Shown piece after piece: positions 8,814 to 41,363 of a stretch of 44,104 nucleotides of DNA. Origin of the DNA: a virus (Duplodnaviria; Caudoviricetes); IMG/VR virus record IMGVR_UViG_3300002307_000090, positions 1-44,104 of that record. One strand, 5' to 3'. The translations under genes and the position numbers were made by a program. Below the pieces are notes generated by a model. That model was given only the letters and a program-made list of their open reading frames with translations. It was not told where the DNA came from and made no database searches. Position 1 is the first letter of the stretch. Each line of letters begins with the position of its first letter.

Positions 8814-9320
8814 ATGAGAACTGACATTTACGGCCAAATCATTCTATCCGAACAGGATATCTGCGAAGCAATGTTGCAGAGTCCTGACAGAATATTATCC
8901 AAAATATACATAGACCAACCAATAAATATCAATGATGAATTGGAATTGAATGAAATACCCGTGTTTGTTGAGTATGTAAACAGTTCTGAAACAATCGAAG
9001 AGTTTGATCAAAGACTACAAAATAATTGGCATATGCCAGAAGAATACAAAACTTTCGATATTGCACAATGGGTATTGGAACAATGTAAAACTGATCATGA
9101 ACGTCAACGAGTTGGCGAAGAGTTATTGATGTATCTAGATCGAAATTTGTTTTCACTACTACAATACATAAAGTATTTGGTGGACACAATGCGTAAGCAC
9201 AACATAGTATGGGGAGTAGGACGTGGTAGTTCTGTTTCTAGCTATGTACTATATCTGATCGGCATTCATAAGATTGATTCTATGTATTACGATTTGGATA
9301 TAAAAGAATTTTTAAGATAA
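8814..9320 (+). CDS. dnaE: DNA polymerase III alpha (DnaE)-like N-half of a split minimal core
   Basis: RVGEEL...YLVDTMRKHNIVWGVGRGSSVSSYVLYLIGIHKID...EFLR matches DnaE RLxxEL...VGPGRGSxAGSLVAYxLxITxxDP...ERFL. It stops just before the DxD motif. Confidence 0.85.
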   Translation: MRTDIYGQIILSEQDICEAMLQSPDRILSKIYIDQPININDELELNEIPVFVEYVNSSETIEEFDQRLQNNWHMPEEYKTFDIAQWVLEQCKTDHERQRVGEELLMYLDRNLFSLLQYIKYLVDTMRKHNIVWGVGRGSSVSSYVLYLIGIHKIDSMYYDLDIKEFLR

Positions 9321-9329
9321 GGAAATACA

Positions 9330-9725
9330 ATGAGCGATATGCACAAATCAGCAATGGGTCGTACGGTAGATATGGCTGCACTACGAGCAAAAAACGAACA
9401 CACTCGTGCAGTTGGCAACATGAACGTCAATGCACGTGGCGATGTTATTGACAGCAACAATGAAGTTATCAATGACAACAACAAGCGTGTCAATGAGTAC
9501 TACATGAAAAGCGCAATGAATCGTGGTGTTAGACCAACTGGAATCAACACGGCGCCTAGTCCAATTATAGGAGAAGTGGCTCCAATTCAACAAACTTCAA
9601 TGCCACAACCAGATCCAATTTCAGTGGCGGAAGAATTGCATCCAGATGAGTTGGATTTTGATGATCATGATGAAGAGATCGTAAAAGAAGAACCGAAAAC
9701 AAAGAAAAACAATTCATCCAAATAA
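9330..9725 (+). CDS. Hypothetical protein
   Basis: 131 aa with AAGGA SD; RAVGNMNVNARGD motif, acidic tail. Confidence 0.7.
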   Translation: MSDMHKSAMGRTVDMAALRAKNEHTRAVGNMNVNARGDVIDSNNEVINDNNKRVNEYYMKSAMNRGVRPTGINTAPSPIIGEVAPIQQTSMPQPDPISVAEELHPDELDFDDHDEEIVKEEPKTKKNNSSK

Positions 9726-9726
9726 C

Positions 9727-9755
9727 TTGATGTTTAATCTATAACACAGTATAAT
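9727..9755 (+). promoter_or_regulatory. Sigma70 promoter; leaderless
   Basis: TTGATG-N17-TATAAT; CATCC 7 nt upstream of the -35; ATG 6 nt after the -10. Confidence 0.7.
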
Positions 9756-9761
9756 ACACAC

Positions 9762-10127
9762 ATGAATACTAAAATCAGCTATGCAGCACATCAACTTAAT
9801 TCCAATCAACTCGTTCCGTTGAAAGATACCATTATCGTCAAAGATATGGTCTTCAAGGAGCGAATGGTTGGTTCAATCATTATCGTCAAAGATGACGGCA
9901 AGGATTCGGGTATCAGACCACGTTGGGCAGAAGTCTACAAAGTCGGCCCAGATCAACACGATGTCAAAGTAGGCGAGTATGTACTTGTCGCACACGGACG
10001 TTGGACCCGTGGAATTGATATCGAAGACGAGAACGGTCACACAACCATTCGCAAAGTCGATCCTAAAGACATCTTGCTTGTCGATAGTGTCAGGCACGAA
10101 GACGAAACTCAATCAACAAAAGTATGA
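9762..10127 (+). CDS. groES: Co-chaperonin GroES-like
   Basis: LVPLKDTIIV...GSIII...AEVYKVGP...VKVGEYVL...DIL follows the GroES pattern. Confidence 0.8.
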   Translation: MNTKISYAAHQLNSNQLVPLKDTIIVKDMVFKERMVGSIIIVKDDGKDSGIRPRWAEVYKVGPDQHDVKVGEYVLVAHGRWTRGIDIEDENGHTTIRKVDPKDILLVDSVRHEDETQSTKV

Positions 10128-10393
10128 TCAGACGTCAACTTCAAAAAATAATTCGTTGGGCAATGAATTATGGGTCTAGTGTTTGTGAACAGCCCGTGTC
10201 AACCTCTAGTTTGAACGGTAAAGGAATGAACTTCTCGATTTATTCAGCCAGCGGTGGTCATGTTATGGAGTATCGTATGTACGACGAGAAGACTGATAAG
10301 ATGATCAACAACTTGCATATTATAACCAGCGATCAAGACATGGGCGAAAGAATCGGTCTGATCGTTACAACTGAAATCTTAAGAAACCACTAA
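10124..10393 (+). CDS. Hypothetical protein
   Basis: 89 aa, ATGA overlap with groES. Confidence 0.65.
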   Translation: MIRRQLQKIIRWAMNYGSSVCEQPVSTSSLNGKGMNFSIYSASGGHVMEYRMYDEKTDKMINNLHIITSDQDMGERIGLIVTTEILRNH

Positions 10394-10394
10394 C

Positions 10395-11333
10395 ATGACA
10401 CTACACAACAAACTCTGGGTCGAGAAGTTTCGCCCAAGTACCGTTTCGGACTACGTTTTCGTAGACGAACGGCAAAAGCAACAAGTCAACGACTGGATCG
10501 CATCAGAGTCTATTCCCAATCTACTACTGAGCGGAGAACCAGGAACAGGCAAGACCACACTGGCAAAAGTGCTGATGAATGAATTGGGCATTGATGAATT
10601 CGATGTGCTTGAGATCAACGCATCACGTGAGAACGGTGTTGATGTTATTCGTGACAAGATTCTAGGTTTCGTACAAACAATGCCCTTTGGCAAGTTCAAA
10701 GTCGTACTGTTAGACGAGGCAGACTACATGACTCCAGCGGGTCAGGCCATGCTGCGTGGTGATATTGAAACCTATCACAGTTCAGTGCGTTTTATCTTGA
10801 CTTGCAACTATGCACACAAGATTATCCCAGCACTGAAAAGTCGTTGTCACGAGTTTCATATCACCAAGACAGACAGAACCGAGTTTACTGCACGAGCAGC
10901 AACGGTCTTGGTCACAGAAGGTATTGAATTTGATCTTGACACACTTGATGCGTATGTAGGAGCAACTTATCCAGACTTACGCAAGTGTTTGAATCAATTG
11001 CAAGCCAACAGTTCAACTGGCAAACTGCTACAGGTTCAAAACAGTGTGAACGATCAAGATGCAATGCTTGTCGAAATCACCGATCTGTTCAAGGGCGGCA
11101 AGATCACAGAGGGTCGTCAGCAACTCTTGCAGTTCTTGGGTTTCAACCCAACACGTCTTGAAGACTTGTACAAGTGGATGTATCAGAACTTGAACTTGTG
11201 GGGCAAGACTGACGAACAAAAAGACGCAGCCATTATCGTGATTAGAAACGGTCTGGCAAATCTATCATTGGTTGGCATTCCCGAGATAAGTCTTGCGGCA
11301 ACTATGATCGAACTTACACAAATAAAAGGATAA
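10395..11333 (+). CDS. gp44: Sliding-clamp loader large subunit (T4 gp44/RFC-like AAA+)
   Basis: LWVEKFRP, GEPGTGKTT, INAS, DEAD and SRC motifs. Confidence 0.92.
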   Translation: MTLHNKLWVEKFRPSTVSDYVFVDERQKQQVNDWIASESIPNLLLSGEPGTGKTTLAKVLMNELGIDEFDVLEINASRENGVDVIRDKILGFVQTMPFGKFKVVLLDEADYMTPAGQAMLRGDIETYHSSVRFILTCNYAHKIIPALKSRCHEFHITKTDRTEFTARAATVLVTEGIEFDLDTLDAYVGATYPDLRKCLNQLQANSSTGKLLQVQNSVNDQDAMLVEITDLFKGGKITEGRQQLLQFLGFNPTRLEDLYKWMYQNLNLWGKTDEQKDAAIIVIRNGLANLSLVGIPEISLAATMIELTQIKG

Positions 11334-11335
11334 CA

Positions 11336-11611
11336 ATGAGATACTTGATGTTGACATTCTACAGACAGCCGGGTGGCCAAATCAACGAAGAGCGCAAAGT
11401 CGCTGCAAATCTTAAGCCACGTGATCTGCAACAATGTAGCGTGATCATGGACTACAAAGAAGAAAAGGTTATCAAGTGTGTAATCGAGGGCAAAATGGTA
11501 CCTACATCGTTTGAGAAATTGAACGAGTACTACAAAAAGGTTTACCCAGAAGCAATCGATCAACTTGAACTTATCAATCATGAACGATTTGAACCAAAGA
11601 GCATACTTTAA
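11336..11611 (+). CDS. Hypothetical protein
   Basis: 91 aa, AAGGA SD, in operon. Confidence 0.65.
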   Translation: MRYLMLTFYRQPGGQINEERKVAANLKPRDLQQCSVIMDYKEEKVIKCVIEGKMVPTSFEKLNEYYKKVYPEAIDQLELINHERFEPKSIL

Positions 11612-12195
11612 TGAGCAATGTAATCTTAACTGATGTAGACGGTGTACTTCTCAACTGGGAGTATGCTTTCGACACCTGGATGCAAACACACGGTCACTCT
11701 AAAGTCGCTGGTGGAGAATACAAGTACGACATTGGCAAACGATACAACATTTCTAAAGAACAAGGCAAGCAACTGATCAAGTACTTCAACGAAAGTGCTG
11801 CCATTGGTTTTCTACCACCCTTACGTGATGCCATGCACTATGTCAAGAAGCTACACGAAGAACACGGTTACGTATTTCACGCTATCACTTCACTTTCAAC
11901 AGACAAGAATGCTGTACATCTGCGTGAAATGAACTTGAAGAAACTGTTTGGCGAAACCGCGTTTGAACGGATCGTATGTCTAGACACAGGCGCAGACAAA
12001 CTCGACGCATTGACTCCGTATCGTGATAGCGGTCTATGGTGGCTTGAAGACAAGATCGACAACTGTATTGATGGAATAAATGTTGGACTCAAGTCGTTGT
12101 TAATGGAACATGGACACAACATGGACTTTGATCATTCAGAAATACCTCGCGTCAAAAATTGGCGCGAGGTATACGACATCGTGTTGGGAAATTAA
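11611..12195 (+). CDS. HAD-superfamily 5'(3')-nucleotidase-like (T4 30.2-like)
   Basis: ILTDVDGVLLNW motif I, AITS motif II, K and LEDK motif IV. Confidence 0.8.
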   Translation: MSNVILTDVDGVLLNWEYAFDTWMQTHGHSKVAGGEYKYDIGKRYNISKEQGKQLIKYFNESAAIGFLPPLRDAMHYVKKLHEEHGYVFHAITSLSTDKNAVHLREMNLKKLFGETAFERIVCLDTGADKLDALTPYRDSGLWWLEDKIDNCIDGINVGLKSLLMEHGHNMDFDHSEIPRVKNWREVYDIVLGN

Positions 12196-12965
12196 CGATA
12201 GAGTTTCAGAATCTCTCCGATCAGTCTGTGACGCTGAATGTCACGATGATCAAAATAGCAGGTCTCAATGCCCTCTGTTGGAGACTTCTGCAACTTGTCT
12301 TGTAAGTCCATCAATCCATTGTCAACAGACTTCCTGTCTGTTTGCTCAATATCACCAGTCACAACGATCTTAGAACCCACACCAATACGAGTGAGAAGCA
12401 TTTTCAACTGCGTTGGTGTGGCGTTTTGCATTTCATCGGCAATGATCCATGTGTTCTTGAATGTACGACCACGCATATATCCCAACGGCGCAAATTCAAC
12501 AATCTGATCTGCCAACATACCCTCTACCTCTTTGACAGCGTAGAACTCATGTAGAACGTCAACCATGGGTCTGACCCACGGCGCTAATTTTTGATTCAAA
12601 TCACCTGGTAAAAAACCATGTTGTTCATCTTCAATCGAAACGTTTGGACGACATAGCACAATACGATCACACTCACGATTTCGCATTGCTTGGATAGCTG
12701 CCAAGATAGCCAGATATGTCTTTCCCGTACCCGCTGGCCCACTCACGACCACTACATCGGTGTCTTCGTTTTGAAGCGCCAGAATGTATGATTCTTGATT
12801 GACTGTTTTGGGAACTAAGTTAACAGCTTTGCGCTGTTTTTGTGGATTGAAACTTACTATATTCGATGTGGTCTCCATAGGTTGCTTTTGATAGAAAGTT
12901 TGATAGTGTTTTTGTGTTGAGTAGTCTTGTTCTTTTCTTAATGCACTGCTTTTTTTTCTTGACAA
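12192..12965 (-). CDS. phoH: PhoH-family ATPase
   Basis: GPAGTGKT, RGRTF, DEMQN, GDIEQTD. Probable TTG start at 12965 behind an AGGAG SD; minus-strand TGTAAATA late promoter at 13007-13014. Confidence 0.92.
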   Translation of the reverse strand: MSRKKSSALRKEQDYSTQKHYQTFYQKQPMETTSNIVSFNPQKQRKAVNLVPKTVNQESYILALQNEDTDVVVVSGPAGTGKTYLAILAAIQAMRNRECDRIVLCRPNVSIEDEQHGFLPGDLNQKLAPWVRPMVDVLHEFYAVKEVEGMLADQIVEFAPLGYMRGRTFKNTWIIADEMQNATPTQLKMLLTRIGVGSKIVVTGDIEQTDRKSVDNGLMDLQDKLQKSPTEGIETCYFDHRDIQRHRLIGEILKLYR

Positions 12966-13006
12966 GGTAAATCTCCTGAGGGTTGATCTGCTCATAACAG
13001 ATAAAG

Positions 13007-13134
13007 TATTTACAAACTGCAAACGTGCAGCATAATGCGTGTCATTTCTTAGAAAATCATGATAAATAAAAAGCTGTACCACATGTTATTGGTTATCTTT
13101 CAAAAACACTATTCATATATTAAAATGATAAATA
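13007..13134. promoter_or_regulatory. Divergent late-promoter region
   Basis: Minus-strand TGTAAATA at 13007-13014; plus-strand GATAAATA at 13061-13068 and 13127-13134. Confidence 0.65.
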
Positions 13135-13141
13135 CTTTACT

Positions 13142-13765
13142 ATGAAAGAAAAAACATTCTTAGATACACCCCAATGGGAAGAAATCGTCAATAACGTCAA
13201 GGGCATCATGACCTCTGATGGTACTATGACTACGCTGCTTGACTTTGAGCGTGTGCTAGACGAAGCAGACATCTATGCGTTCAAGAACTGGGGTCTGGGA
13301 GAACTGGTTGACGGACCCATTATTCGTCGCTATGAAGTGATCTGTACGTTCATGTGGCCCTTAGGTGTTATGCCTGACCCACGTGGAGCAAAACGATTGC
13401 TACCCTTGGGTTGCAATGTCAAATTCAAAAAGACAGGCATCAAAGTGCCTATTCAAATTCAAGAGCCTGATGACTTTAAACCAGGCACACACTATCCAAA
13501 ACTGATTGATCGTAAAGTATGGCTTGTAAACATTACAATGCCCAAAGAACTAATGAACGACATTCGTGAAGGCACTATCGATCTTGCTGGTCAAAACATT
13601 GACCTTGAAGACCTTGATGACGCATACGCTAAAGACTATGACACTGATGATCTGAAAGATTATGAAGACGAAGAAGGCGGTGAACAATCTCCAGGCGGTG
13701 CTCCAGACATGGGCATGGGCGGCGGAATGGGCGGTGGACTAGCTCCCGGCGGTCTAGGAATATAA
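13142..13765 (+). CDS. Late phage protein, function unknown
   Basis: 207 aa. DFERVLD...KNW..GELVDGP...MPDPRG core, acidic/Gly-rich tail, leaderless after late promoter. Confidence 0.7.
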   Translation: MKEKTFLDTPQWEEIVNNVKGIMTSDGTMTTLLDFERVLDEADIYAFKNWGLGELVDGPIIRRYEVICTFMWPLGVMPDPRGAKRLLPLGCNVKFKKTGIKVPIQIQEPDDFKPGTHYPKLIDRKVWLVNITMPKELMNDIREGTIDLAGQNIDLEDLDDAYAKDYDTDDLKDYEDEEGGEQSPGGAPDMGMGGGMGGGLAPGGLGI

Positions 13766-13766
13766 T

Positions 13767-14309
13767 ATGAAACAGCTAAATGAAAGCTTACAACATTTAG
13801 ATTTTGAAAATCAATTGTTGACAACCATGGGCATTGACAAATACGCATCAAGCATTGGCAATGATGAAGACTTTATCACTCTGAACTTTACAGTGCGAAG
13901 CAAACCCGGAGCAGATGATTTGGTCAACTGGTTAGAGCGTGGATACGACTGGATCGTGGATGCTGAAACAAGTCCAGGTGAAGTCACAGATGGAAAATTC
14001 TTGGTGTTTGCTGAACTCAATCGTCGCACCAATGCCGCAAAACGCATATATGAAATTATGGCAGACTTGGAAACACTTACTGGATTAGACGCAGAAGAAT
14101 GGAAGTTGAACATCGGAGACAGTATGTATCCAGCATCAGAAGAAACCATCAAAAAGCACATTGCACTTAGCCCGTTGGAATACAAAGAGCAACACGAAAC
14201 CGAATTGAATGAAATGCGTGTGATCGCTGGTCTTGAAGAAGTTACCATTTATAATGGCAAGAAAGATGCAGCAATTCAAGCAATGCAACGATCAGCCGGA
14301 ATCATATAA
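13767..14309 (+). CDS. Late phage protein, probably head-associated
   Basis: 180 aa. MKQLNES N-terminus; LNEMRVIAGL and AMQRSAGII motifs. Confidence 0.65.
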   Translation: MKQLNESLQHLDFENQLLTTMGIDKYASSIGNDEDFITLNFTVRSKPGADDLVNWLERGYDWIVDAETSPGEVTDGKFLVFAELNRRTNAAKRIYEIMADLETLTGLDAEEWKLNIGDSMYPASEETIKKHIALSPLEYKEQHETELNEMRVIAGLEEVTIYNGKKDAAIQAMQRSAGII

Positions 14310-14311
14310 TC

Positions 14312-14352
14312 TGTCCAAACTGCTTGACAGCATTATCTACCTGTGTTATAAT
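14312..14352 (+). promoter_or_regulatory. Consensus sigma70 promoter with TGTCC box; leaderless
   Basis: TGTCC-N7-TTGACA-N17-TATAAT; ATG 5 nt after the -10. Confidence 0.85.
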
Positions 14353-14357
14353 TCTGT

Positions 14358-15128
14358 ATGGATTACTATAGCGCACTAGGCATCTCTAAGACTGCCACAC
14401 AACAAGAAATCAAACAAGCTTATCGCAAGCTGGCGGCTAAGCATCATCCGGATCGAGGCGGATCAACCGAAGAATTCCAAAAGATCGAAGAAGCTTATCG
14501 CACACTAAGCGATGAAGAGAAACGTCAGCAGTACGACAATCCAAATCCCTTTGGTCAAGGTGGAGCAGGATTTGGTGGATTCAACTTTGGCGGTGGCAGT
14601 CCATTCGAGGAAATATTCAAGCAGTTCAATCAACCACGTCAGCGTATGTACACAGTCAATGTGTTTGTCACGCTTGAGCAAGTATCACGTGGAGACACAG
14701 AGACAATTCAAGTTCAAACTCCAGCCGGTCCCAAAACATTTCAAATCAAAGTGCCAAAGGGCATTGAAGACGGACAGCGAGTCAACTATGAGAACTTGAT
14801 GCCAGACGGTGTGTTGCAAATCATGTTTAGAATTCATCGTCACACAAAGTTTGAACGTCGCGGTTTGGACTTGGTGACCATTCTCAACATTTCGGTGTTT
14901 GATTTGATCTTGGGAACTGACATTGAGTTCATCACCATTCACGATCAAACACTGTCGGTCAAAATCCCACCACGCTCAAAGCCAATGTCCAATTTGCGAA
15001 TCCCAAATCACGGATTGGAAGCATCCAACGCTAAAGGTGACCAATATCTATTGCTTTCCCCTGTAATACCTGATACAATCAGTACTGACTTACTTACTGC
15101 TCTGGAAAAAGAGCGCAAACAAGGATAA
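14358..15128 (+). CDS. dnaJ: DnaJ class II (CbpA-like) co-chaperone
   Basis: J-domain with HPD, G/F-rich linker, C-terminal substrate domain, no Zn finger. Confidence 0.9.
15051..15079 (+). promoter_or_regulatory. Internal sigma70 promoter for clpA
   Basis: TTGCTT-N17-TACAAT inside the dnaJ 3' end. Confidence 0.5.
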
Positions 15129-15131
15129 TAT

Positions 15132-17438
15132 ATGATCAATAACCCAGATGTAGAACGCATTATTGAACAGGCAATTCAATTTGCCAAACAACGCAATCAT
15201 GAATATGTCACTCTAGAGCATACGCTATTGAGCATGATCACAAGTGAACCATTCAAGAAACAATTGGAAAAGTTCGGCGTTCAAACTGATCTGATGATGA
15301 TGGATGTTTCAGGATATCTTGACGGGTTAGTATCACTTGTGGCAAAAGACACTAGTGTTCCAGTACAGCCTAGAAAAACCAACACACTTGATCGCATGTT
15401 CAGCCGTGCAGTCACGCAAGTGCTGTTCACGGGTCGCAGACAAATCGAAATCATCGACTTATATTTGAGTATGATTCACGAAACCAACAGTCACGCATCG
15501 TATTTCTTGTTGAAATGGGGTGTGACAAAAGTAGAATTCATTGCATTCTGGAAACAAAATTTTAATATGACAAAACACGTTGATCGCTTGAGCGAAGAAC
15601 AAGCCACTGAAATCCTCGAAGAATATACAATCAATCTTACCGCACTTGCACGTGACAACAAGATTGAACCCGTGATTGGACGTGAGCAGGAGATTCAAGA
15701 TATTATCATGATTCTTGCCAAGAAGTTCAAGTCCAACGTATTGATGGTCGGTGATCCAGGTGTGGGTAAGACTGCAATCGCAGAGGGCATTGCATCACGA
15801 ATCATCACAAATGACGTGCCAGACTTTTTGAAAAATCACGAACTGTACTCACTTGAGATCGGGTCATTGCTGGCAGGATCAAAATATCGTGGTGACTTTG
15901 AAGAGAAAGTCAAGAACGTGATTGACGCATTGACAACAAAAAAGAATGTCATTTTGTTCATTGACGAAGCACACACCATGAAGGGTGCAGGTGCCGGCAC
16001 ATCCAGTTCGCTTGACTTTGCCAATATGTTCAAGCCTGCAATCACAAAGGGCACACTCAAGATCATTGCATCAACAACTTGGGAAGAATTCTACGAGTCG
16101 TTTGAGAAAGATCGTGCATTGATGCGTCGTTTCTATCGTGTGGGCGTCGATGAACCTGATATGGAAACCACAGAAAAGATTCTCACTGGTCTTTCAGAAC
16201 GCTTGAACGAGTTTCACAATGTTGTCATTCAGCCCAGTGCCGTCAAAGCGGCAGTTGAACTGAGCAACAGATACATTCATGATCGCAAGAACCCTGACAA
16301 GTCAATTGACTTGATTGACGCTGCGTGTGCAAAAGAACGTGTGGCAAACTCACAGGGCACCAAGATTACTGACGTTGAAATCAAAGAGCAAGTGACAAAG
16401 ATGTGTGATATCCCAGAGGACAAAATGTCAACTGATGTGTCAGACAAGATGATGACGCTTGAAAGCACGATTCACGACAAACTGTACGGTCAAGATTCGG
16501 CAGTCAAAGATGTGCTTGACAGAATCTATGTGTCGTATGCTGGTATTGCCAACGAGAAAAAGCCAATGGCATCATTCTTGTTCTTGGGCCCAACCGGCAC
16601 TGGTAAGACTGAGTTTGCAAGATTGCTGAGTTCACATCTTCAAATGCCCTTGCTCAAGTATGACATGAGTGAGTATCAAGAGAAACATTCAGTGGCAGCC
16701 TTGATCGGTGCTCCACCAGGATATGTTGGATTCTCGGACTCAAACTTGGGCGGTGGTAAGATCATCAACGATTTGTCAAAGAACCCATACTCTATTCTAC
16801 TGTTTGATGAAGTCGAAAAAGCTCACCCTGATGTGTACAACTTGTTCTTGCAATTGCTGGATGAGGGTCGTATCACAGGCACAAACGGTAAGACAGTCAA
16901 TGCCAAGAACACAATCGTGATCATGACTTCAAACTTAGGTTCTGCTGATAGTGAGCGCAACAACATTGGTTTCGGCGAACAGGGCAAAACAGGCGAAGAC
17001 GAGAAAGCTCTTAAAGAGTTCTTCAAACCTGAGCTGCGTAATCGTATTGATGCTATTGTCAAGTTCACCAAGCTTGATGACTTGTCGATCAAGAAAGTTG
17101 TGGTCAAGTTTGCAAACGAACTGCGTACACAGCTTCAAGATCAACACAACATCACACTGACACTGACTGAGCCTGTGGTTGACTATCTCGTGCGTCAGGG
17201 ATACGACTCCAAGATGGGCGCACGTCCTCTTGCTCGTAAGATTGATGAACTGGTTCGTGTACCCTTGAGCAAGAAAATCTTGTTTGATCGTGTCAAGAAC
17301 AGTGATATCACTGCTGTGCTTGTGCCAAACGAGGGTATTGACTTTGAAATCACCGCAAAGCCGCACGATCATACTGCAACTGTCGGTACCGATGGTGTCA
17401 TTTATGTTCAGGGTGATTTGTTTGATAACTCAAAGTGA
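15132..17438 (+). CDS. clpA: ClpA-like Hsp100 AAA+ unfoldase
   Basis: Clp N-domain, GDPGVGKT/FIDEAH, GPTGTGKT/FDEVEK, PPGYVG pore loop, IGF loop, no M-domain. Confidence 0.92.
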   Translation: MINNPDVERIIEQAIQFAKQRNHEYVTLEHTLLSMITSEPFKKQLEKFGVQTDLMMMDVSGYLDGLVSLVAKDTSVPVQPRKTNTLDRMFSRAVTQVLFTGRRQIEIIDLYLSMIHETNSHASYFLLKWGVTKVEFIAFWKQNFNMTKHVDRLSEEQATEILEEYTINLTALARDNKIEPVIGREQEIQDIIMILAKKFKSNVLMVGDPGVGKTAIAEGIASRIITNDVPDFLKNHELYSLEIGSLLAGSKYRGDFEEKVKNVIDALTTKKNVILFIDEAHTMKGAGAGTSSSLDFANMFKPAITKGTLKIIASTTWEEFYESFEKDRALMRRFYRVGVDEPDMETTEKILTGLSERLNEFHNVVIQPSAVKAAVELSNRYIHDRKNPDKSIDLIDAACAKERVANSQGTKITDVEIKEQVTKMCDIPEDKMSTDVSDKMMTLESTIHDKLYGQDSAVKDVLDRIYVSYAGIANEKKPMASFLFLGPTGTGKTEFARLLSSHLQMPLLKYDMSEYQEKHSVAALIGAPPGYVGFSDSNLGGGKIINDLSKNPYSILLFDEVEKAHPDVYNLFLQLLDEGRITGTNGKTVNAKNTIVIMTSNLGSADSERNNIGFGEQGKTGEDEKALKEFFKPELRNRIDAIVKFTKLDDLSIKKVVVKFANELRTQLQDQHNITLTLTEPVVDYLVRQGYDSKMGARPLARKIDELVRVPLSKKILFDRVKNSDITAVLVPNEGIDFEITAKPHDHTATVGTDGVIYVQGDLFDNSK

Positions 17439-18126
17439 TTTCACACGTGATAATTCCAGACTGACTTTATACCACGATACGTTCAAGTATAGAGTCAGTA
17501 TGGATATTGATGGCATAGAGTATTTTAGACGTGCAAAAACATACGAACAATTTATAGAGGTGTGTGAATTCATTACGCCCTCTAGATTTATTCATGGCAA
17601 AACAATTCAAAAATTCGTTGATTGGCGCGGCATCAATGACCCAGAAAAATTTATGGTGCGTATCTCTCATGGAAGTTTAAATGTATACTTTAATGAGTTT
17701 GATATCATCAATGACTTGTTAGATAGGTTCACTGATGTTGAGAAAACACGTCAGCACACAAAGTATTGGTACTGTGAGCCAATGCCAAATTACGACAAGG
17801 GTGTGCTTTATCGAGTAAATCCCAAGCACAAGTATAGAATCTATATGAAAAGTCGCAGATACACTAATGATGAGCGTAAAGAACTTCTTTCTTATCTTAG
17901 CAATAAGAACGTTCATTTTGCAGAAGCAATGATGAACTGGTTTCATCTGGCGCCTGATACCGCGTTCGGTTCTGCAAACTGGTTTGGATTTCGTTCAGGA
18001 ACAATTTGGGCATATCCAAGTAATTTCTTTGATTTTGATGACGAATCACTTATTACAATGCTGTACTTGAAATATCCCGACTTGATAGGAAAAGTCTTTG
18101 AGATACAACAAAAGATAAATACTTGA
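17404..18126 (+). CDS. Hypothetical protein (start uncertain, 17404 or 17422)
   Basis: Long aromatic-rich ORF filling the gap after clpA. Confidence 0.6.
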   Translation: MFRVICLITQSDFTRDNSRLTLYHDTFKYRVSMDIDGIEYFRRAKTYEQFIEVCEFITPSRFIHGKTIQKFVDWRGINDPEKFMVRISHGSLNVYFNEFDIINDLLDRFTDVEKTRQHTKYWYCEPMPNYDKGVLYRVNPKHKYRIYMKSRRYTNDERKELLSYLSNKNVHFAEAMMNWFHLAPDTAFGSANWFGFRSGTIWAYPSNFFDFDDESLITMLYLKYPDLIGKVFEIQQKINT

Positions 18127-18139
18127 CGGAGCATTTATC

Positions 18140-18304
18140 ATGGCACAAATCCACGAAGAAGTTATCATTATCAAACTAAGCAAGCTGGTTAAAAACGACG
18201 CAGAAGCAGGTGTATTAGCATCAGTTGACATTGTTACAGCACTTGAGCAAGTTGTTCAAGAGTTAGTAGGTGATACAGTCATTGTTGAAGTCGAGAAAGC
18301 ATAA
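18140..18304 (+). CDS. Small late protein (54 aa), absent from the ORF track
   Basis: MAQIHEEVIIIKLSKLVK...VEVEKA; GGAG SD; GATAAATA at 18114-18121; TAATG coupling to the next gene. Confidence 0.75.
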   Translation: MAQIHEEVIIIKLSKLVKNDAEAGVLASVDIVTALEQVVQELVGDTVIVEVEKA

Positions 18305-18705
18305 TGGCACAGGGCACCACAGTTGTTCTTATCCCTCAAACCGCATATCCTGGGCCACCAGGAACTACGGCTGCTTACGTTGGAGAAAAACAACAAGCGG
18401 CTGCTTACTATCTTGCCAATCGTGATTTGCAAACTATCAGTTGGAATCTAGGTCAAGTCCCGCAGCCACAGAATCAAATGAGTAATCCAGTATTCGTTGG
18501 AAACATTTTCATTCAGGCTAGCATTGCCACAAGTCCAACAACAGACAATGATTGGTTTGGTGTGTATCAACTAGATACTACTCCCAATCCCAACAACAAC
18601 GTTCAGCAGGGCTACTATAATCTCAAGGGCAACTACGTGTGGCTCAGAGCAGTAGTGCGTGACTGGACTCAGGGCGCAATATCTCTAGTAGCAGCGAGTT
18701 ACTAA
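18304..18705 (+). CDS. Probable virion structural protein (beta-rich)
   Basis: 133 aa. FVGNIFIQASIA...DWF...GNYVWLRA resembles the C-terminal part of 41772..42632. Confidence 0.6.
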   Translation: MAQGTTVVLIPQTAYPGPPGTTAAYVGEKQQAAAYYLANRDLQTISWNLGQVPQPQNQMSNPVFVGNIFIQASIATSPTTDNDWFGVYQLDTTPNPNNNVQQGYYNLKGNYVWLRAVVRDWTQGAISLVAASY

Positions 18706-18881
18706 TGAACAAGCAACAACTTCGCAGACTTATTCGTGAAAGCAGAACCTTGATGCGTACTGCTACGCCTGAGCAAAAAGTTCGCTTGTTGTCGCTTATT
18801 CGTGAAAGCTATCGTAAAATCAAAGCTCAACAGTTAATCGAATCACAACCCATTGATACCGATTACTTAGAAGAAAAATAA
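18705..18881 (+). CDS. Small late protein (58 aa) with LIRES repeats, absent from the ORF track
   Basis: MNKQQLRRLIRES...LLSLIRES...LIES...DYLEEK; TAATG coupling. Confidence 0.65.
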   Translation: MNKQQLRRLIRESRTLMRTATPEQKVRLLSLIRESYRKIKAQQLIESQPIDTDYLEEK

Positions 18882-18943
18882 AAATTTTTCGATCACTCAT
18901 CTGTGCTGTAAATAGTAGTATCATTTACAACATAGGATGAAAA

Positions 18944-19867
18944 ATGTCAACTAAGAAATCAAAAGAAAAACTAATTCCGGTGGATGCAGTTCAAGAAATT
19001 GCAGACAAGGCCCCACAAGCAGCAAGTATCGGCGGTACCGGTGAACAACCACCCGCAGCAGCTCCAGCAGAAGCAGCACTACAGCCTGGACAACAACAAA
19101 TTCAAGTTAACGTAGAGTTCTTGAAGACCACACGAGTTCACATTGGTATGCCATGCTACGGTGGTATGCTAACAGAATCAACGTTCATGTCTTTCATCAA
19201 GTTTGGTAACACTGCACGTCAACTTGGTATTGACTGGACATTGGAAACAATGGTCAATGAATCATTGATCTCACGTGCTCGTAATACACTAACAGCAAAG
19301 TTCTTGCATCAGAAAGAATCAACACACTTAATGTTTATTGACGCTGACATTGGTTGGGAAGCGTGGCATCTGTTGGCCTTGTTGAATCATGACAAAGACA
19401 TGATCGGTGGTCTGTATCCAATGAAGACCATGCCAATCAAGTGGGTTGTCAACGGTTTTGAGGGCGCAGAAGAGGGTCCAAACGGTCTACAAGAAGTTTC
19501 AAAAGCCGGTACTGGTTTCTTATTGACCAAGCGTGATGTATTTGCCAAGATGGCCACACACCCAGCCGTTAAAGCGTACAAGAACGACATCGGTCTTGAT
19601 CCAGTTTACGATCAATACTTGCGTACATACTGGGACACAGCGGTTCGTCAAGGTCGCTACTACAGTGAGGATTGGACCGCATGTGAAAACTGGCGTGATC
19701 TGGGCGGTCGTATCTGGATGGACAAGCGTATTCTGTTGCGTCATCAGGGATCGTATAACTTCTGTATTGAGAATCAAGACCATCTGTTGAGCACAATTGG
19801 CCCGATGTATTTGGAACAGCAGATACAACAAGGCAAAGTTCAAAAGATCGATACATCAGCGAAATAA
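18944..19867 (+). CDS. GT-A fold glycosyltransferase (GT2-like)
   Basis: IGMPCYGG, SRARN, FIDADI (DxD), GTGFLL, SED, H motifs; TGTAAATA at 18907-18914. Confidence 0.8.
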   Translation: MSTKKSKEKLIPVDAVQEIADKAPQAASIGGTGEQPPAAAPAEAALQPGQQQIQVNVEFLKTTRVHIGMPCYGGMLTESTFMSFIKFGNTARQLGIDWTLETMVNESLISRARNTLTAKFLHQKESTHLMFIDADIGWEAWHLLALLNHDKDMIGGLYPMKTMPIKWVVNGFEGAEEGPNGLQEVSKAGTGFLLTKRDVFAKMATHPAVKAYKNDIGLDPVYDQYLRTYWDTAVRQGRYYSEDWTACENWRDLGGRIWMDKRILLRHQGSYNFCIENQDHLLSTIGPMYLEQQIQQGKVQKIDTSAK

Positions 19868-19896
19868 AAATGGAGGCTTCGGCCTCCATTTTGTTT
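19867..19896 (+). terminator. Intrinsic terminator with C(UUCG)G tetraloop
   Basis: AAAATGGAGGC-TTCG-GCCTCCATTTT. Confidence 0.9.
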
Positions 19897-19923
19897 GACA
19901 CGCACTGAGCATCGTGCTATAAT
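19895..19923 (+). promoter_or_regulatory. Consensus sigma70 promoter; leaderless
   Basis: TTGACA-N17-TATAAT; ATG 6 nt downstream. Confidence 0.85.
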
Positions 19924-19929
19924 CACTCA

Positions 19930-20559
19930 ATGACTATTTACTATCTATACATCAAGACGCATCGAGTCACCGGATTAAAATATTTCGGACAAACGATACA
20001 GGATCCTTTCAAATATCGAGGGTCTGGTCCATATTGGAAAAAACATCTTCAAGAATATGGATATGATATTGATACAGAGATAGTTCTTGAAACTATCGAT
20101 AAGAATGAACGTAATCGTATCGGACGAAAACTTAGCTCATTGTGGAATGTTGTTGAAAGTGACGAATGGGCAAACTCTATACCAGAAACAGGTGGCGGAT
20201 CATTCAGCGGAGAATGGAATCCGAATCGCGGAAAGAAAGGACCAGATCATCCAGCTTATGGACGAATCGATTCTGAAGAAACAAAAAAACTCAAAGCAGA
20301 AGCGAAGAAGGGATCAAAAAACCCATTCTTTGGCGTGACAGGTAAAGATCACCCAGGGTCAAAGATAGATAAGCGCGGAGCAAATAATCCAACATACGAC
20401 CCCACTATATTTACGTGGAGAAATGATGAGAGTGACGTGACGCACTATATGACTAGACAAGAGTTCAAATCGCTGGGTATATTGTCAAAAGCCTCAGTGG
20501 ATAGATTGGCAAGAGGTTCGTATCCGTCGCACAAAGGCTGGCGGATCGTCCGAGACTAA
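19930..20559 (+). mobile_element. Free-standing GIY-YIG-like (Seg-type) homing endonuclease with NUMOD-like repeats
   Basis: YLYIK..TGLKYFGQT..Y.GSG.YW...E...N-GG nuclease domain; SEETKKL and NPFFG NUMOD3-like motifs. Confidence 0.75.
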
Positions 20560-20567
20560 ATACAAGT

Positions 20568-21458
20568 ATGAACTTAAAAGAATTAGATTCCTTCAAAATG
20601 AGTGACGCTGTTGTATTACACGACACGCTGAACCCTGCACTATTCAATGACGAACACATGCGTAGTGATGTTCGTGCAAAACTGCTGGAGATTGCAGAAG
20701 AGTTTATCGACTATCTTGGTGTTTCAAATCTAGATGTTCGAGATATTACTATCTCAGGTAGCAACGCAGCATACTCATACACACCGCACAGCGACATTGA
20801 TCTACATATCATTGCAGACATGTCCAAGTTCAACAATGATGCCATATATCGTGAGTTGTTTACGGCAAAAAAGAATCTGTTCAACGCTGATCACAATATC
20901 AAAGTTAGAGGTTACGATGTTGAACTGTATGTTCAAGACAGTTCAAAACCTGTTCGCAGTCTTGGCGAGTACAGTGTTGAACACAACAAGTGGATCAAGT
21001 TCCCATCAAAGAAACGTGCAAACTTAGATCACTCATCAGTCGAAAACAAGTTTAAGAAGTTGGTCCAATTGGGACAACTGGCACTACGCTCGTCTGACAT
21101 TGACGCATTGAGCGATGTACTATCAACACTCAAGCGATATCGTCAAGCAGGTCTTGATGAACACGGTGAGTTTGGACCCGAGAATCTTGCGTATAAAGCA
21201 CTGCGCTCACAGGGACTGGTAGACAAACTGTACAGTCACATGGATGTACTCAAGAGCAAGCAGTTGAGTCTTGACGAGCAACTCTATGAAGCCAGTGGTT
21301 ACATCCCATCCGAGAAAGAAAAGAATGATCCACGCTTCAAGACAGCTCTGACAGTTGACGTACACCCAGATAGTATACAGCAAAATGCCAAAAAACTGGG
21401 TTCAAAGATAGCTCGAAGTGGTGTACCACCCACACTAAAACCATCAGGCAAGATATAA
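20568..21458 (+). CDS. Pol-beta-superfamily nucleotidyltransferase
   Basis: ITISGSNA...SDIDLHI (GS..DxD) and third acidic residue in VELYVQD; late promoter ACTAAATA at 20555-20562. Confidence 0.8.
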   Translation: MNLKELDSFKMSDAVVLHDTLNPALFNDEHMRSDVRAKLLEIAEEFIDYLGVSNLDVRDITISGSNAAYSYTPHSDIDLHIIADMSKFNNDAIYRELFTAKKNLFNADHNIKVRGYDVELYVQDSSKPVRSLGEYSVEHNKWIKFPSKKRANLDHSSVENKFKKLVQLGQLALRSSDIDALSDVLSTLKRYRQAGLDEHGEFGPENLAYKALRSQGLVDKLYSHMDVLKSKQLSLDEQLYEASGYIPSEKEKNDPRFKTALTVDVHPDSIQQNAKKLGSKIARSGVPPTLKPSGKI

Positions 21459-21517
21459 ATTTTTCCACTATAGGTAGTGAATATAAATAAATTCACTAAC
21501 CATCAAGGAATATTTTT

Positions 21518-22210: not shown

Positions 22211-22235
22211 GCACTTTATACCGTTATAAATAACA

Positions 22236-22262
22236 AACCCTAGCATAATACCTAGGGTTTTT
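22236..22262 (+). terminator. Hairpin/terminator between two late promoters
   Basis: AACCCTAG...CTAGGGTT plus T-tract; TATAAATA at 22225-22232 and GCTAAATA at 22272-22279. Confidence 0.6.
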
Positions 22263-22286
22263 GCGTAATTGGCTAAATACTTTACT

Positions 22287-22613
22287 ATGGCCACACAATT
22301 TTACAGAACGCTTGATGATATTATAAAACTCAAGCAAGAGAATCAGCAACGACTTCAAGATCGAGTTGCTGACATAAATGAAAATACTGCTAACTCATCA
22401 TATGATGACGAACTAGCAGCACTTAAATCAAATTTAAAAACAATCGGAGTGAGCAATTCACTCACAGAGCAATCAATTGAAGACAAGTTCATTGATAAGA
22501 GCAAGCGTTTAGAGTTCATACGTGAACACAATATTAAACACGGCTCACCACGCTGGTTTCGGGTCATGTACGCACGACCAGAACTGACCGGCGAAGATCC
22601 ATTCGGAGAATAA
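22287..22613 (+). CDS. Hypothetical late protein
   Basis: 108 aa from ATG 22287; INE and LTE sites; NIKHGSPRWF C-terminal motif. Confidence 0.65.
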   Translation: MATQFYRTLDDIIKLKQENQQRLQDRVADINENTANSSYDDELAALKSNLKTIGVSNSLTEQSIEDKFIDKSKRLEFIREHNIKHGSPRWFRVMYARPELTGEDPFGE

Positions 22614-32286: not shown

Positions 32287-32526
32287 ATGACACTACCAGA
32301 AGAACGCTATCGTGCCATTAAACAGGGCAAGAAGCTGCTAGAAGAATTATGCGATCCTGGCAGAACACCACGTGTTCCGGGAATTGTACGTGAACGAGCA
32401 AGATCAGCACTTAGACACTATCCAACTGAATATGAACTAGATCGTATGGCTACTAGTTGTCCAGAATTGCTTGACTCGGAAGAGTTCTCGCTGTACAATA
32501 AACAACTAATGAATAAAGGATTATAA
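32287..32526 (+). CDS. Small conserved phage protein (resembles the BPSL0761 family from memory)
   Basis: MTLPEERYRA...TPRVP..VR..AR..LRHYP; GGAG SD. Confidence 0.6.
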   Translation: MTLPEERYRAIKQGKKLLEELCDPGRTPRVPGIVRERARSALRHYPTEYELDRMATSCPELLDSEEFSLYNKQLMNKGL

Positions 32527-33170
32527 TGAGTTTCGCTTCTACTCATCTGATGATCAAACGGCATCGAGTCACGGGTCTTATGTATTTTTGTAAGACTACG
32601 GCTCAGGACCCGTTTAAATATCAGGGGTCTGGGCGATACTGGAAAAATCATCTTAAGAAACACGGACGACACGTCGATACTATTTGGTCTCAACTATTTA
32701 CCGATAAAAATGATATAGTCGAGTTTGCTTTATTCTTCAGCGATTTTCATGATATTGTAAAGCATAGAGACCCAAACGGAAAAAAAACTTGGGCAAATGA
32801 AGTTCCGGAAGACGGACTTCAGGGCGGACAGAATCGAGGAATGAGCGGCCCCGGAATTACTAATTATGGAAATACTCACACAGAAGAGGCAAAAAAGACG
32901 ATGGCTCTTTTTGGAGATTCTAACGGTATGTACGGGAAAAATCATACTCTCGATTCAATAGAAATGATGAAGAAAAATCGTCCGAGTCAGACAGGATCCA
33001 AAAACCCAGTTGCCAGACCATGCCACACACCGAACGGATGGTTTGATACTGTTCGAGAAGCAACTAAGAACGAAAGCATTAGTGAACCGACACTGAGGAC
33101 GAGATTACAATCGACTGATGAAAAATATAAAGAATATTACTATAAAGGAAATGAAAATGAAACCATTTGA
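32526..33170 (+). mobile_element. Free-standing GIY-YIG-like homing endonuclease
   Basis: HRVTGLMYFCKT..DPFKYQGSGRYWKNHL, paralogous to 19930; HTEEAKK and NGMYGKNHT NUMOD3-like motifs; overlaps the uvsX start. Confidence 0.75.
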
Positions 33171-38700: not shown

Positions 38701-38712
38701 TATAATAACACT

Positions 38713-39213
38713 ATGAAAATACTCACTCTTGACAATACAGCGTACAATCTTGAAAATCTCCCAGAAGAGATTGATGATTTAAGATTCGCAATCTTAGACA
38801 ATTCAAATCCACAGTCGGTGGACTATCATTACATTCCACTTATCTTTTTGGAATCATTCAACAGTCCGGCATTAGTATTGCGTATTGGTGATGCTCAGAT
38901 CAAAATGCCATTGGATTGGCAAATCTTGATTGGTGAAGCTGAAATGGGCGATCTTGAAACGTTACCACTTACATCAATCAATGATCGTGGCTTCAACGCA
39001 TTTGAGTTTAACCCGCTGAGCGGCTTTAGACCTTCATTTCTTGACATTGAGATTCTGGATGTGTATCATGATGTTACATGGTTTGCGCCCAGATTGAAGA
39101 ACGGTCAATTCTTATGCGTACCTATTGATGACTCACCCAAGCCACGCTGTATTTACTTTGTCAAAGAAGTCAGTCGTAACTGTGAGATAATCGATTATAA
39201 TCAGGCGTTCTAA
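38713..39213 (+). CDS. Beta-rich hypothetical protein
   Basis: 166 aa; own promoter TTGCTA-N17-TATAAT at 38678-38706, leaderless. Confidence 0.7.
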   Translation: MKILTLDNTAYNLENLPEEIDDLRFAILDNSNPQSVDYHYIPLIFLESFNSPALVLRIGDAQIKMPLDWQILIGEAEMGDLETLPLTSINDRGFNAFEFNPLSGFRPSFLDIEILDVYHDVTWFAPRLKNGQFLCVPIDDSPKPRCIYFVKEVSRNCEIIDYNQAF

Positions 39214-39483
39214 ATGTCACTATACTATCAAGACCCCACCTATGTCATGGTAATTGATGTTGATCAAGCTGCCAAAATAGATCATGCAATGGCGACCGAT
39301 AATTCAACGCTAACTCTAAAACGTCCAGCGAACTATTGGTGGGAGGCTCAAAACAGATTCTTAGGACGACACAACGCACGATACGGCCAAGTGATAAAGA
39401 AATACAATCCATATGTGTGGAAGAGAGAACTTATTTTTGACACAGAACAAGACGCAGTTATGTTTTATCTAAAGGTATTATAA
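39214..39483 (+). CDS. Hypothetical protein
   Basis: 89 aa; C-terminal F.TEQDAVMFYLK motif of a type common in small phage proteins. Confidence 0.6.
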   Translation: MSLYYQDPTYVMVIDVDQAAKIDHAMATDNSTLTLKRPANYWWEAQNRFLGRHNARYGQVIKKYNPYVWKRELIFDTEQDAVMFYLKVL

Positions 39484-40076
39484 TGGCAACCAAGAAAGCA
39501 GCAACACCCGCTGACGAGAAGTTTCAGAATCAAGACTTTGACTTGTTCAAGGCTATTGATGCTATTGACGCAAAGAACTATGACTGGTTCGCAAACTTAA
39601 CTGACGAACAGCGTAAGAAGTTTGTACCCTATATGATGACGCATTGGATCAGTTCAGTCAAAAAGACTGGCATAGTCGGTGCGTATTATGTTATGAGCGT
39701 AGATGCAAATGCCAACAAGCATTTGTTTGACGAGCATATTATGAGTCATCCAGAGTTACAATGGAAGATGTTGTGTGCGGCAAGTCCAGGAATTGGAAAA
39801 CAGTTTCACAGTTGGATTCCACATCTAAATGTCAAAGTGTCGCAACTCAAAGAACCAGCAACAAAGAAAGAAGTCAAAGACTATTTCAGCAAAGTATACG
39901 CAGGAATCAAACCAGAAGTACTAGACGATATTGCAGCAAGTTATACGCAAAGTCAACGACATGCACATACCTTGGCCAAAATGTATCCCAATATGAAACG
40001 TGAAGACATTGAGCAATTGTCTAAAATTGTAAGCGAGAAAGACATTGAAGACTACGAACGAGAATCAGGCAACTGA
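39483..40076 (+). CDS. gp62: Clamp loader small subunit (T4 gp62-like)
   Basis: FDLFKAI...KKFVPYMM.HW.S...HPELQW.ML...GKQFH.WI pattern. Confidence 0.6.
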   Translation: MATKKAATPADEKFQNQDFDLFKAIDAIDAKNYDWFANLTDEQRKKFVPYMMTHWISSVKKTGIVGAYYVMSVDANANKHLFDEHIMSHPELQWKMLCAASPGIGKQFHSWIPHLNVKVSQLKEPATKKEVKDYFSKVYAGIKPEVLDDIAASYTQSQRHAHTLAKMYPNMKREDIEQLSKIVSEKDIEDYERESGN

Positions 40077-40758
40077 TAAAGAAGAATATCGCTGCGATCA
40101 TTGCAAGCGATCATTCGTCAAACCAGCCAGTTTTATGAATCACATGTGTGAGCAAAAACGTCGTTGGATGGACAAGGACAAACCGCAAAACCGTATTGCA
40201 TACTCAGCATGGTTGAACTTCTATAAAACGGTACAGCCATCAAGAAAAAAGCGTGACTATGCTGACTTTATTGGCAACGCATACTATCGTGGATTTATCA
40301 AGTACGGCATTTATTGCGTAGAAGTTGGAGTGGTAAACCCAGATCGTTATGCAGCATACTTGCTCAACGAAAAAGTAGCACTAGACAACTGGAACAGCGA
40401 CAAAGTATACACCAAGTATTTGATCTTTTATCTACGTCAAGAAGACGGCATGGATGCTGTTCGTCGTAGCATTGATCATATGCTTACTCTAAGTGAAAAC
40501 GAAAACGTAGAATTGCGTGATGTTTTTAGATATGTAAACTCAAACAAAGTCTGTCAGTACATTTGTTCGGGCAAGATTAGTCCATGGGTACTGTACTTAA
40601 GCAAGTCGGGTCCCGAGTTTTTGTCAAAACTCAATGACGATCAGCGTAATGTTATTTTTGAATACATTGACCCAGAGCGTTGGAACATTAAGTTCAAGCG
40701 TGACACAGACGAAGCAAAAAGCGTAAGCACAGTGCTAGAACAAATATCAGGATTGTAA
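40045..40758 (+). CDS. Zn-finger replication-cluster protein (start uncertain)
   Basis: YRCDHCKRSF......NHMC finger; helical body with GKISPW. Confidence 0.65.
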   Translation: MKTTNENQATDKEEYRCDHCKRSFVKPASFMNHMCEQKRRWMDKDKPQNRIAYSAWLNFYKTVQPSRKKRDYADFIGNAYYRGFIKYGIYCVEVGVVNPDRYAAYLLNEKVALDNWNSDKVYTKYLIFYLRQEDGMDAVRRSIDHMLTLSENENVELRDVFRYVNSNKVCQYICSGKISPWVLYLSKSGPEFLSKLNDDQRNVIFEYIDPERWNIKFKRDTDEAKSVSTVLEQISGL

Positions 40759-41363
40759 TGACTAAACGATTTGTAAGTGATATCGATATCGATCTAGGTG
40801 ATCGTAGCATACTGCTGCCCTATCTAGATACAACTCCTGCTGCCATACGCAACGAGACTGTACGCAGACACAACTCTGGAGTATATGTCACGGATATCCC
40901 ACATGATCCGATCAACAGCATTGCAGCTATTGATTATAACGTGGCAGAAGATCGTGGCTATGTCAAGCTTGACTTGCTGAATGTATGGCTGTATCGTCAC
41001 GTGCGTGATGAACAGCATCTTGTATCGCTTATGCGTGAGCCAAACTGGAGCAAACTTAGTGACAAGTCGTATGTTGAGAATCTGATTCACATTGACAATC
41101 ATTATGAAACCATGACAAAGATGGAGCCTATTACAAGCATACCAAGATTGGCAATGTTCTTATCGCTGATCAGACCAGGAAAGAAACATTTGATTGGGAA
41201 AAGTTGGAAAGAAATCGCAGATACTATCTGGACAATTGATGAGGGTGGTTATAGTTTCAAGAAGTCACACGGTATAGCTTATGCACATCTTGTTGTGGTA
41301 CATATGAACTTGCTGCTTGAAGACAGCACTGCACTACAGCATACGCTTAACAAGAGTGATTGA
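40758..41363 (+). CDS. dnaE: DNA polymerase III alpha (DnaE)-like C-half of a split minimal core
   Basis: SDIDID, HNSGVYV, GYVKLDLL, LSLIRPG and YSFKKSHGIAYA match DnaE PDxDxD, HAGGVVI, GLVKFDFL, ALFRPG and YGFNKSHSAAYA. Confidence 0.88.
   Translation: MTKRFVSDIDIDLGDRSILLPYLDTTPAAIRNETVRRHNSGVYVTDIPHDPINSIAAIDYNVAEDRGYVKLDLLNVWLYRHVRDEQHLVSLMREPNWSKLSDKSYVENLIHIDNHYETMTKMEPITSIPRLAMFLSLIRPGKKHLIGKSWKEIADTIWTIDEGGYSFKKSHGIAYAHLVVVHMNLLLEDSTALQHTLNKSD

Follow-up and report, generated by a model that had tools for sequence, protein, structure and literature searches.

Split, minimal forms of the DNA polymerase III (Pol III) α subunit were described from sequence in the group 2.2 jumbo phages by Iyer et al. 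in 2021 (Viruses 13:63, PMC7824862). The accessible part of that paper places the enzyme alongside a family B polymerase and guesses that it serves one strand or repair. A Pol III α subunit that is conserved across Rak2-like phages had been annotated earlier, in the available text of the Atu_ph07 paper (PMC6102473). We analyzed a viral record of 44,104 nt (IMG/VR record IMGVR_UViG_3300002307_000090, hereafter the window), which is the entire record and an incomplete genome fragment, and which encodes two such proteins, an N half and a C half. A preliminary description of the window had implied that the enzyme was new; it is a further member of the split minimal Pol III α already reported in 2021.

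A literature search with subscription papers outside its coverage found no follow-up bench test of the split enzyme. The term "DNA polymerase" never occurs in the available part of a 2026 jumbo-phage review (PMC13282480), and a 2026 survey of bacterial polymerases, in its accessible text, dropped fragments of fewer than 200 residues (PMC12926913). From the sequences and predicted structures, we consider it fairly probable that the two chains pair as a primed, templated, distributive short-patch polymerase selective for deoxynucleoside triphosphates (dNTPs).

Two genes for one catalytic core

The N half (P0001, 168 amino acids (aa)) is encoded at 8814..9320 and the C half (P0002, 201 aa) at 40758..41363, both on the + strand, as are all features below unless noted. 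The two open reading frames (ORFs) are colinear with DnaE, do not overlap, lie 31 kb apart and total 369 aa, as the preliminary description had it. The Pfam family DNA_pol3_alpha (PF07733), with which that description proposed to check the genes, matches the N half at profile positions 16-94 (E 6.9e-10); a Pfam scan of the C half gave no match. Both halves belong to PHROG families labeled DNA polymerase, the N half to PHROG 11127 (E 6.5e-42) and the C half to PHROG 11778 (E 1.8e-56). A sequence search of the PDB returned weak matches for the N half (E 0.056-0.058) and nothing relevant for the C half.

Models of the separate chains (predicted local distance difference test score, pLDDT, 83.9 for the N half and 88.4 for the C half) were compared with 48,161 PDB chains. 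The top seven rows were all C-family polymerases for the N half (Z 7.0-11.2, next row 3.4) and likewise for the C half (Z 6.7-10.4, next row 3.7), so the palm expected in the preliminary description is present in the separate-chain models. Residues 58-168 of the N half superpose on the E. coli DnaE palm at 271-393 (Z 9.6, root-mean-square deviation (rmsd) 3.0 over 107 residues; best Z 11.2), with residues 1-57 barely covered by the comparison. Foldseek returned nothing at E ≤ 0.001 for the N-half model, though its ranks 1-10 were DnaEs. Profile comparison weakly matched N-half residues 7-45 to E. coli 237-275, the last PHP/linker segment; this suggests that the N-terminal part is a remnant of the PHP end. 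For the C-half model, 197-199 residues could be aligned with PolC 966-1309 and with E. coli DnaE 395-793 (rmsd 3.2-4.0); the alignment with DnaE stops at 793, and the helical thumb is deleted, as is most of the index finger. A profile built from divergent C halves matches E. coli DnaE at 399-417, 539-641 and 739-769, in that order, the first match being not significant alone.

Residues were counted in 88 full-length C-half representatives (27-55% identity) taken from 150 listed; the other 62 of the 150 were shorter than 178 aa and were left out. Roles were taken from the accessible parts of a cryo-electron microscopy study of E. coli Pol III (bioRxiv 10.64898/2026.06.29.735100) and of PMC8485763. 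The C half opens with MTKRFVSDIDID, in which seven residues precede D8. D8-I-D10 (40779..40787) corresponds to catalytic D401/D403 (87/88 each), and K70-L-D72 (40965..40973) to K553, which contacts the primer phosphate, and catalytic D555 (88/88 each). The template-contacting RPG of E. coli 639-641 is found at R139-P140-G141-K142 (41172..41183), where it is followed by a family-specific Lys at the index-finger deletion (R139 87/88, P140 87/88, K142 79/88). Y165...F167-K168-K169-S170-H171...Y175 (41250..41282) is equivalent to Y754, F756, H760 and Y764; Y754 stacks on the incoming base and H760 is the steric gate (PMC8485763; bioRxiv 10.64898/2026.06.29.735100). Y165 is kept in 63/88 representatives (Phe in 5 more), the F756 equivalent in 73/88 (Tyr in 9 more), H171 in 86/88 and Y175 in 76/88 (Phe in 8 more), with K168, a family-specific basic residue, in 82/88 (Arg in 5 more).

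In the N half, R137-G138-S139 (9222..9230) matches the incoming-dNTP motif R362/G363/S364 of E. coli in 200/200 aligned N halves, a count that is partly circular as 79 of the 200 were fetched by the pattern GRGSS. The C-terminal stretch reads GVGRGSS...EFLR and then stops. This fixed end, E-F-L-R-stop (9306..9320), places E165 at the position of E. coli R390, which is acidic (Glu or Asp) in 200/200 N halves. The last residue is Arg or Lys in 200/200, and the chain truly ends there in 195/199 homologues. The motifs listed in the preliminary description, including GS and S170-H171-x-x-A174-Y175, are thus all present, and the catalytic aspartates hold across divergent homologues.

The motif spacings of the C half point to two large deletions. 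The spacing from D10 to H38 is 22-37 residues across the 88 homologues and 108 in E. coli; in the window 27 residues intervene (25 counted from D12; 107 in E. coli), not the "about 22" first given. From R139 to H171 the spacing is 31-46 residues, compared with 121 in E. coli, and the index-finger segment bearing R709/R710/K714/K715 is missing. A β-hairpin is predicted at residues 26-43 (40833..40886; model strands 26-31 and 35-43), with H38 equivalent to the primer contact H511 (H38 86/88, G41 86/88, A28 83/88). From motif order, residues 26-43 are likely remnant thumb strands. The preliminary description had proposed a two-chain minimal core without a domain to grip the duplex. The first part stands, as PHP, clamp-binding/HhH and OB domains are missing from the halves and a family B polymerase (PolB) is found in the group. 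The second is not supported, because the thumb hairpin with H38 and the K553 equivalent K70 remain.

Near-identical independent records keep the same lengths (P0123-P0126, 168 aa, 97-99% identity; P0003, 201 aa, 97%), which rules out faulty assembly or a frameshift as the source of the split. The first Asp is preceded by 1-17 residues in 87/88 C-half homologues. The split-intein DnaE of cyanobacteria carries IntN and IntC at its facing ends. Neither is found here: the N half stops at EFLR, the C half begins seven residues before D8, and no intein family matched either protein in the Pfam scan, in agreement with the preliminary description. Trans-splicing of the halves was also rejected, as an Rfam scan of the window gave 0 matches, the stop is fixed and each half has its own start codon. 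The phage cut falls at E. coli 393/395. According to the available part of the E. coli study, palm residues 271-393 are mainly unchanged on DNA binding and the part with D401/D403 moves (bioRxiv 10.64898/2026.06.29.735100); the cut is therefore at the boundary between the two.

Distribution and pairing of the halves

To determine how widespread the halves are, we searched 50,697 phage records with tblastn. The C half was found in 96 and the N half in 89. The best 60 matches of each set are from Rak2/GAP32/121Q/PA5oct/Atu_ph07-type jumbo phages, a few of them partial records. Among these best 60, identity is 38.9-46.8% over 90-95% of the length for the C half (Atu_ph07 E 2e-45, GAP32 E 1e-31) and 39-48% over 58-76% for the N half. 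Sequence clusters number 5,699 (C half) and at least 7,997 (N half), and most of the best-matching sequencing runs come from freshwater or lake metagenomes. For PA5oct, a virion mass-spectrometry note concerns nearby genes and neither half. The gene blocks that surround the two halves correspond to those of phage Paride. In the window the N-half/clamp-loader/ClpB block (8814-24177) comes before the terminase/SSB/UvsW block, opposite to the linear arrangement of Paride.

The ratio of nonsynonymous to synonymous substitution rates (dN/dS) was taken from pairs with dS of 0.05-1.5 (182/3,160 C pairs and 40/3,160 N pairs). The median was 0.15 for the C half (23 disjoint pairs) and 0.22 for the N half (16), with a range of 0.05-0.49 across all disjoint pairs. 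By this measure both halves are under purifying selection.

Both halves also tend to occur together, as the preliminary description had proposed to check. The C half is encoded in 10/10 contigs chosen by the N half, and the N half in 4/6 chosen by the C half, with the two misses in contigs 54-58% complete. Of 17 large records, in each of which one half is present by selection, 17 have the C half and 15 the N half, always in single copy and on the same strand. In 14/15 other records with two halves it is the C half that leads, at a distance of 37-119 kb; the N-before-C order and 31-kb gap in the window are incidental. None of 243 loci carries both halves on one locus. All five complete records, and Paride, encode one copy of each half and a PolB. 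A 524-kb record (G020) has two separate PolB genes (C1:19736 and 509331) and one match to each half.

A natural fusion supports the pairing indirectly. P0295, one of the best 150 listed of 487 matches, is a 375-aa protein with the N half at 1-180, a short linker and the C half at 190-370, its motifs running in DnaE order. Its N part matches the N-half alignment (98.9% probability, E 1.4e-17), its C part matches at E 1.9e-38, and the PF07733 match crosses the junction (residues 97-207). Judging from the protein sequence, an artefact joining exactly these ends in frame seems unlikely. Its locus was not found in the viral or metagenome contigs searched. No other fused form was found between 379 and 2000 aa, and the near-length search spanned 110-352 aa, a length of 375 aa falling outside both ranges. 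In a quick tree (7/87 branches starred), which gives no order of fusion versus fission, P0295 groups with the stand-alone C halves P0289 and P0314 (SH-aLRT 93). In the ESM Atlas, P0295 retrieved DnaE-like clusters of 355-378 aa (score 0.93-0.94, 52-108 members) with DNA_pol3_alpha and finger families. Their commonest phylum, where known, is Bacillota; they are possibly other single-chain minimal DnaEs, or fragments.

We also examined which other polymerase parts the relatives encode. PolB is encoded in 12/17 large records, including 5/5 complete ones and Paride; the five misses are 50-60% complete. It is encoded in 3/5 further records including the one complete genome, for 6/6 complete metagenomic relatives overall. 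PHP, DNA_pol3_finger and HHH_6 profiles matched in 0/5 complete relatives while finding their targets in 10-14 of 14 controls, a negative that leaves room for very diverged pieces, as PF17657 missed the C half itself and the OB domain was outside the search. PF07733 matched only the N half in these five genomes. Thus the prospect raised in the preliminary description, that further genes rebuild an ordinary replicase, is argued against for recognizable pieces.

Neighboring genes

The window encodes a T4-like set of genes, including terminase, gp32-type SSB, UvsX, UvsY, UvsW, clamp loader, PhoH, GroES, ClpA/B and DnaG. Neighbors were counted in 80 viral loci per half, restricted where stated to loci long enough. 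Directly 3' of the N half is a phrog_14844 gene (9330..9725), a candidate partner. Its homologue lies within 60 bp of the N half in 77/78 loci and in 55/55 with at least 5.5 kb downstream; this gene, GroES and the clamp loader are constant N-half neighbors (55/55 long-enough loci). In 36/79 loci, though not in the window, a gene of about 200 aa and no known family (e.g. L153:4755-5357) is directly 5' of the N half. A 235-aa gene occupies the same slot in Paride, matched by position only.

The most constant neighbor of the C half is a convergent phrog_11637 gene (41334..41711, − strand) that overlaps its 3' end. A homologue is beside the C half in 77/80 loci (55/55 with at least 4 kb downstream) and overlaps it in 58/77. 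In the protein the motif WWWESNR is invariant and the tail is basic, and family and fold searches gave none for it. A DnaG-type primase (42704..43705) is encoded two genes downstream of the C half, 1.3 kb away, with a DnaB helicase next in Paride. The primase is downstream of the C half, inside the retrieved flank, in 51/55 loci and UvsW is upstream in 20/23.

The preliminary description singled out a zinc-finger gene coupled to the C half as a possible subunit. This C2HC zinc-finger protein (phrog_11058; 40045..40758) does overlap the C-half start here (TAATG at 40756-40760) and is in the block in 23/23 loci with about 10 kb upstream. However, it abuts the C half in only 13/61 loci, often being split off by inserted genes. 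As it is not a fixed coupled neighbor, we do not single it out as a subunit. The finger is of the eukaryote-like C2H2/C2HC type, C17, C20, H33 and C35 are invariant in 45/45 sequences, and the protein is a conserved phage core protein. That it is a homologue of T4 gp59, or the 39483 product gp62, had no support (hhalign probability ≤0.6%, with shallow profiles), and searches of PDB and Pfam gave zinc-finger matches or noise only.

A Rv2179c-like DEDDh-type 3'-5' exonuclease (PF16473; e.g. L032:2949-3506) is encoded just 5' of the C half in 28/79 loci and within 1.3 kb in 47/79. It is present in 5/5 complete genomes but 41-47 kb from the C half in 3/5, and it is absent from the window. We rejected it as a fixed proofreading subunit for the last two reasons. 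Near the terminase, the window also encodes a pol-beta-like nucleotidyltransferase (20568-21458; weak Pfam match, E 0.005) and a protein with DUF6267 and a cytidylyltransferase-like part (25767-27752). Two NUMOD3-type homing endonuclease genes (phrog_314) are at 19930-20559 and 32526-33170.

Possible role and comparison with known polymerases

The RGS nucleotide-binding motif is on the N chain, and the C chain bears the three metal-binding aspartates with the equivalents of the primer, template and sugar contacts. We propose that the halves dock into a C-family core of about 370 residues beside the family B replicase of the complete relatives. This core would extend a 3' primer end by a few dNTPs at a time on a DNA template. 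Since palm 271-393 is unchanged when E. coli Pol III binds DNA, the cut probably lies at a natural boundary, and the chains could fold apart and then dock. K142, K168 and the terminal Arg/Lys of the N chain may stand in for the lost R390/R709/K714/K715 contacts. The enzyme would be distributive and slow, and perhaps error-prone, as it lacks a helical thumb, most of an index finger and the domains for clamp binding, HhH and OB. What appears to be kept is the grip on the last primer bases, the reading of the templating base and the rejection of ribose; what appears to be dropped is long duplex contact, clamp binding and tight closure. This set is why we favor a two-chain short-patch polymerase. 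Its most likely job would be short-patch extension of primers or gap ends within the T4-type replication and recombination machinery, given the place of the C half between UvsW and the primase-helicase. The place beside the primase leans toward extension of primase products, and analogy with Pol X toward gap or repair filling.

Several observations weigh against the short-patch polymerase. T4 is not known to use such an enzyme in its replication. The location of a gene says little about its role, as the N half is beside GroES and the clamp loader and away from the primase. PolB is not among the 51 ORFs of the 44-kb fragment, and its presence in this phage is deduced from the relatives. P0295 is a singleton from one record, a 2,415-bp contig, and in its closest relatives (G017-G019; 51-58% identity on both halves) 17-24 kb separate the halves. 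The index finger, which closes on the dNTP, is mostly gone, with C-half profile positions 144-155 spanning E. coli 641-739, and catalysis could be weak or depend on a further subunit. The R390 equivalent is replaced by an acidic residue in the phage N halves, and R390A cuts E. coli catalytic efficiency 27-fold in the accessible part of the study (bioRxiv 10.64898/2026.06.29.735100).

The lost index finger suggests a gap to fill, and it is possible, though rather unlikely, that the two chains serve as catalytic core to a larger enzyme of several subunits, which would polymerize one strand processively. The 9330, 41334 or zinc-finger proteins or the Rv2179c-like exonuclease would then supply the finger, the clamp link or proofreading. 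The near-invariance of the 9330 and 41334 homologues (55/55 each) is consistent with this, as is the exonuclease, often beside the C half and present in every complete genome. Yet the PHP, finger and HHH_6 profiles are empty in those genomes, the exonuclease is distant in three of them and absent from the window, and the natural fusion joins the N and C halves only. That R390, the helical thumb, the index finger and the clamp/OB domains are lost could instead point to a non-replicative nucleotidyltransferase, as the pol-beta-type fold is common to template-independent enzymes. The preliminary description had considered such activities: template-independent tailing, de novo NTP priming, or nucleotidylation of DNA or protein. 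They are disfavored because the template-contacting RP (87/88) and the steric-gate His (86/88) are kept; with the H511, K553, R639-P640 and H760 equivalents retained in 86-88/88 and a DnaG primase already encoded 1.3 kb downstream, we consider this explanation improbable.

It is harder still to see the halves as decaying fragments of a captured dnaE, or as separate non-catalytic binding proteins. The genes are far apart in different operon-like blocks and key basic residues are lost. Nevertheless, the catalytic Asp residues persist in 87-88/88 divergent homologues, dN/dS is low in all disjoint pairs, the lengths and the cut are fixed, and the halves recur in 96 (C) and 89 (N) phage records and thousands of clusters, with a fusion in DnaE order. 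We regard decay as very improbable. A bolder version of the short-patch polymerase, which we put forward tentatively as it is itself rather doubtful, would be the smallest family C polymerase, an essential primer-extender in a T4-type replisome that takes DnaG primers to the family B replicase. It would work with no index finger, and the triphosphate site on one chain would be completed by the terminal Arg of its partner. Pol α and B. subtilis DnaE are primer-handing enzymes to which it could be compared.

The family is published and abundant, and this locus is no discovery; the interest is in its function, and in the fusion and residue map that ease tests of it. On the bolder version above, the 375-aa fusion would offer a minimal Pol III already modeled in a single chain. 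An active enzyme would set the minimum for a Pol III core, and would explain a second polymerase as a single-copy core gene in a phage with PolB.

Like bacterial DnaE and PolC (PMC3919608, in its available part; 2HPI, 5M1S, 5LEW, 3F2B), the halves have the palm fold, the three aspartates, the motif order, and the RGS, RPG and Tyr/His nucleotide pocket. With the palm fold, RGS and the equivalents of D401, D403 and D555, they have what marks a family C catalytic core. In contrast to DnaE, with 1160 aa, they are 369 aa over two chains. They lack the PHP catalytic domain, (HhH)2, clamp motif, OB and C-terminal domains, the thumb is reduced to a hairpin, the index finger is mostly deleted and the R390 position is acidic. 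The replicative DnaE1-3/PolC definition, a one-chain PHP-Pol3-(HhH)2 core plus OB, does not describe chains of 168 and 201 aa. Pol X of African swine fever virus works in an analogous way, being a minimal viral repair polymerase of nucleotidyltransferase fold beside a replicase (PMC11646218, accessible part). Unlike the halves, it is of family X, a single chain with no detected sequence relation to them, and is paired with an apurinic/apyrimidinic endonuclease. The closest system remains that of Iyer et al. It shares the distant genes for two units, an N-terminal one that binds NTP and a C-terminal one that binds Mg2+ and template, as well as T4-like core genes in the genome and the phage group, with Atu_ph07, RaK2, GAP32 and PA5oct as common relatives. 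Its PolB companion and its lack of other Pol III domains are matched in the complete relatives of the window phage, within the profiles searched. The accessible part of that paper, in which the architecture is no different from the one found here, has no residue map, fused form or experiment; the first two are added here.

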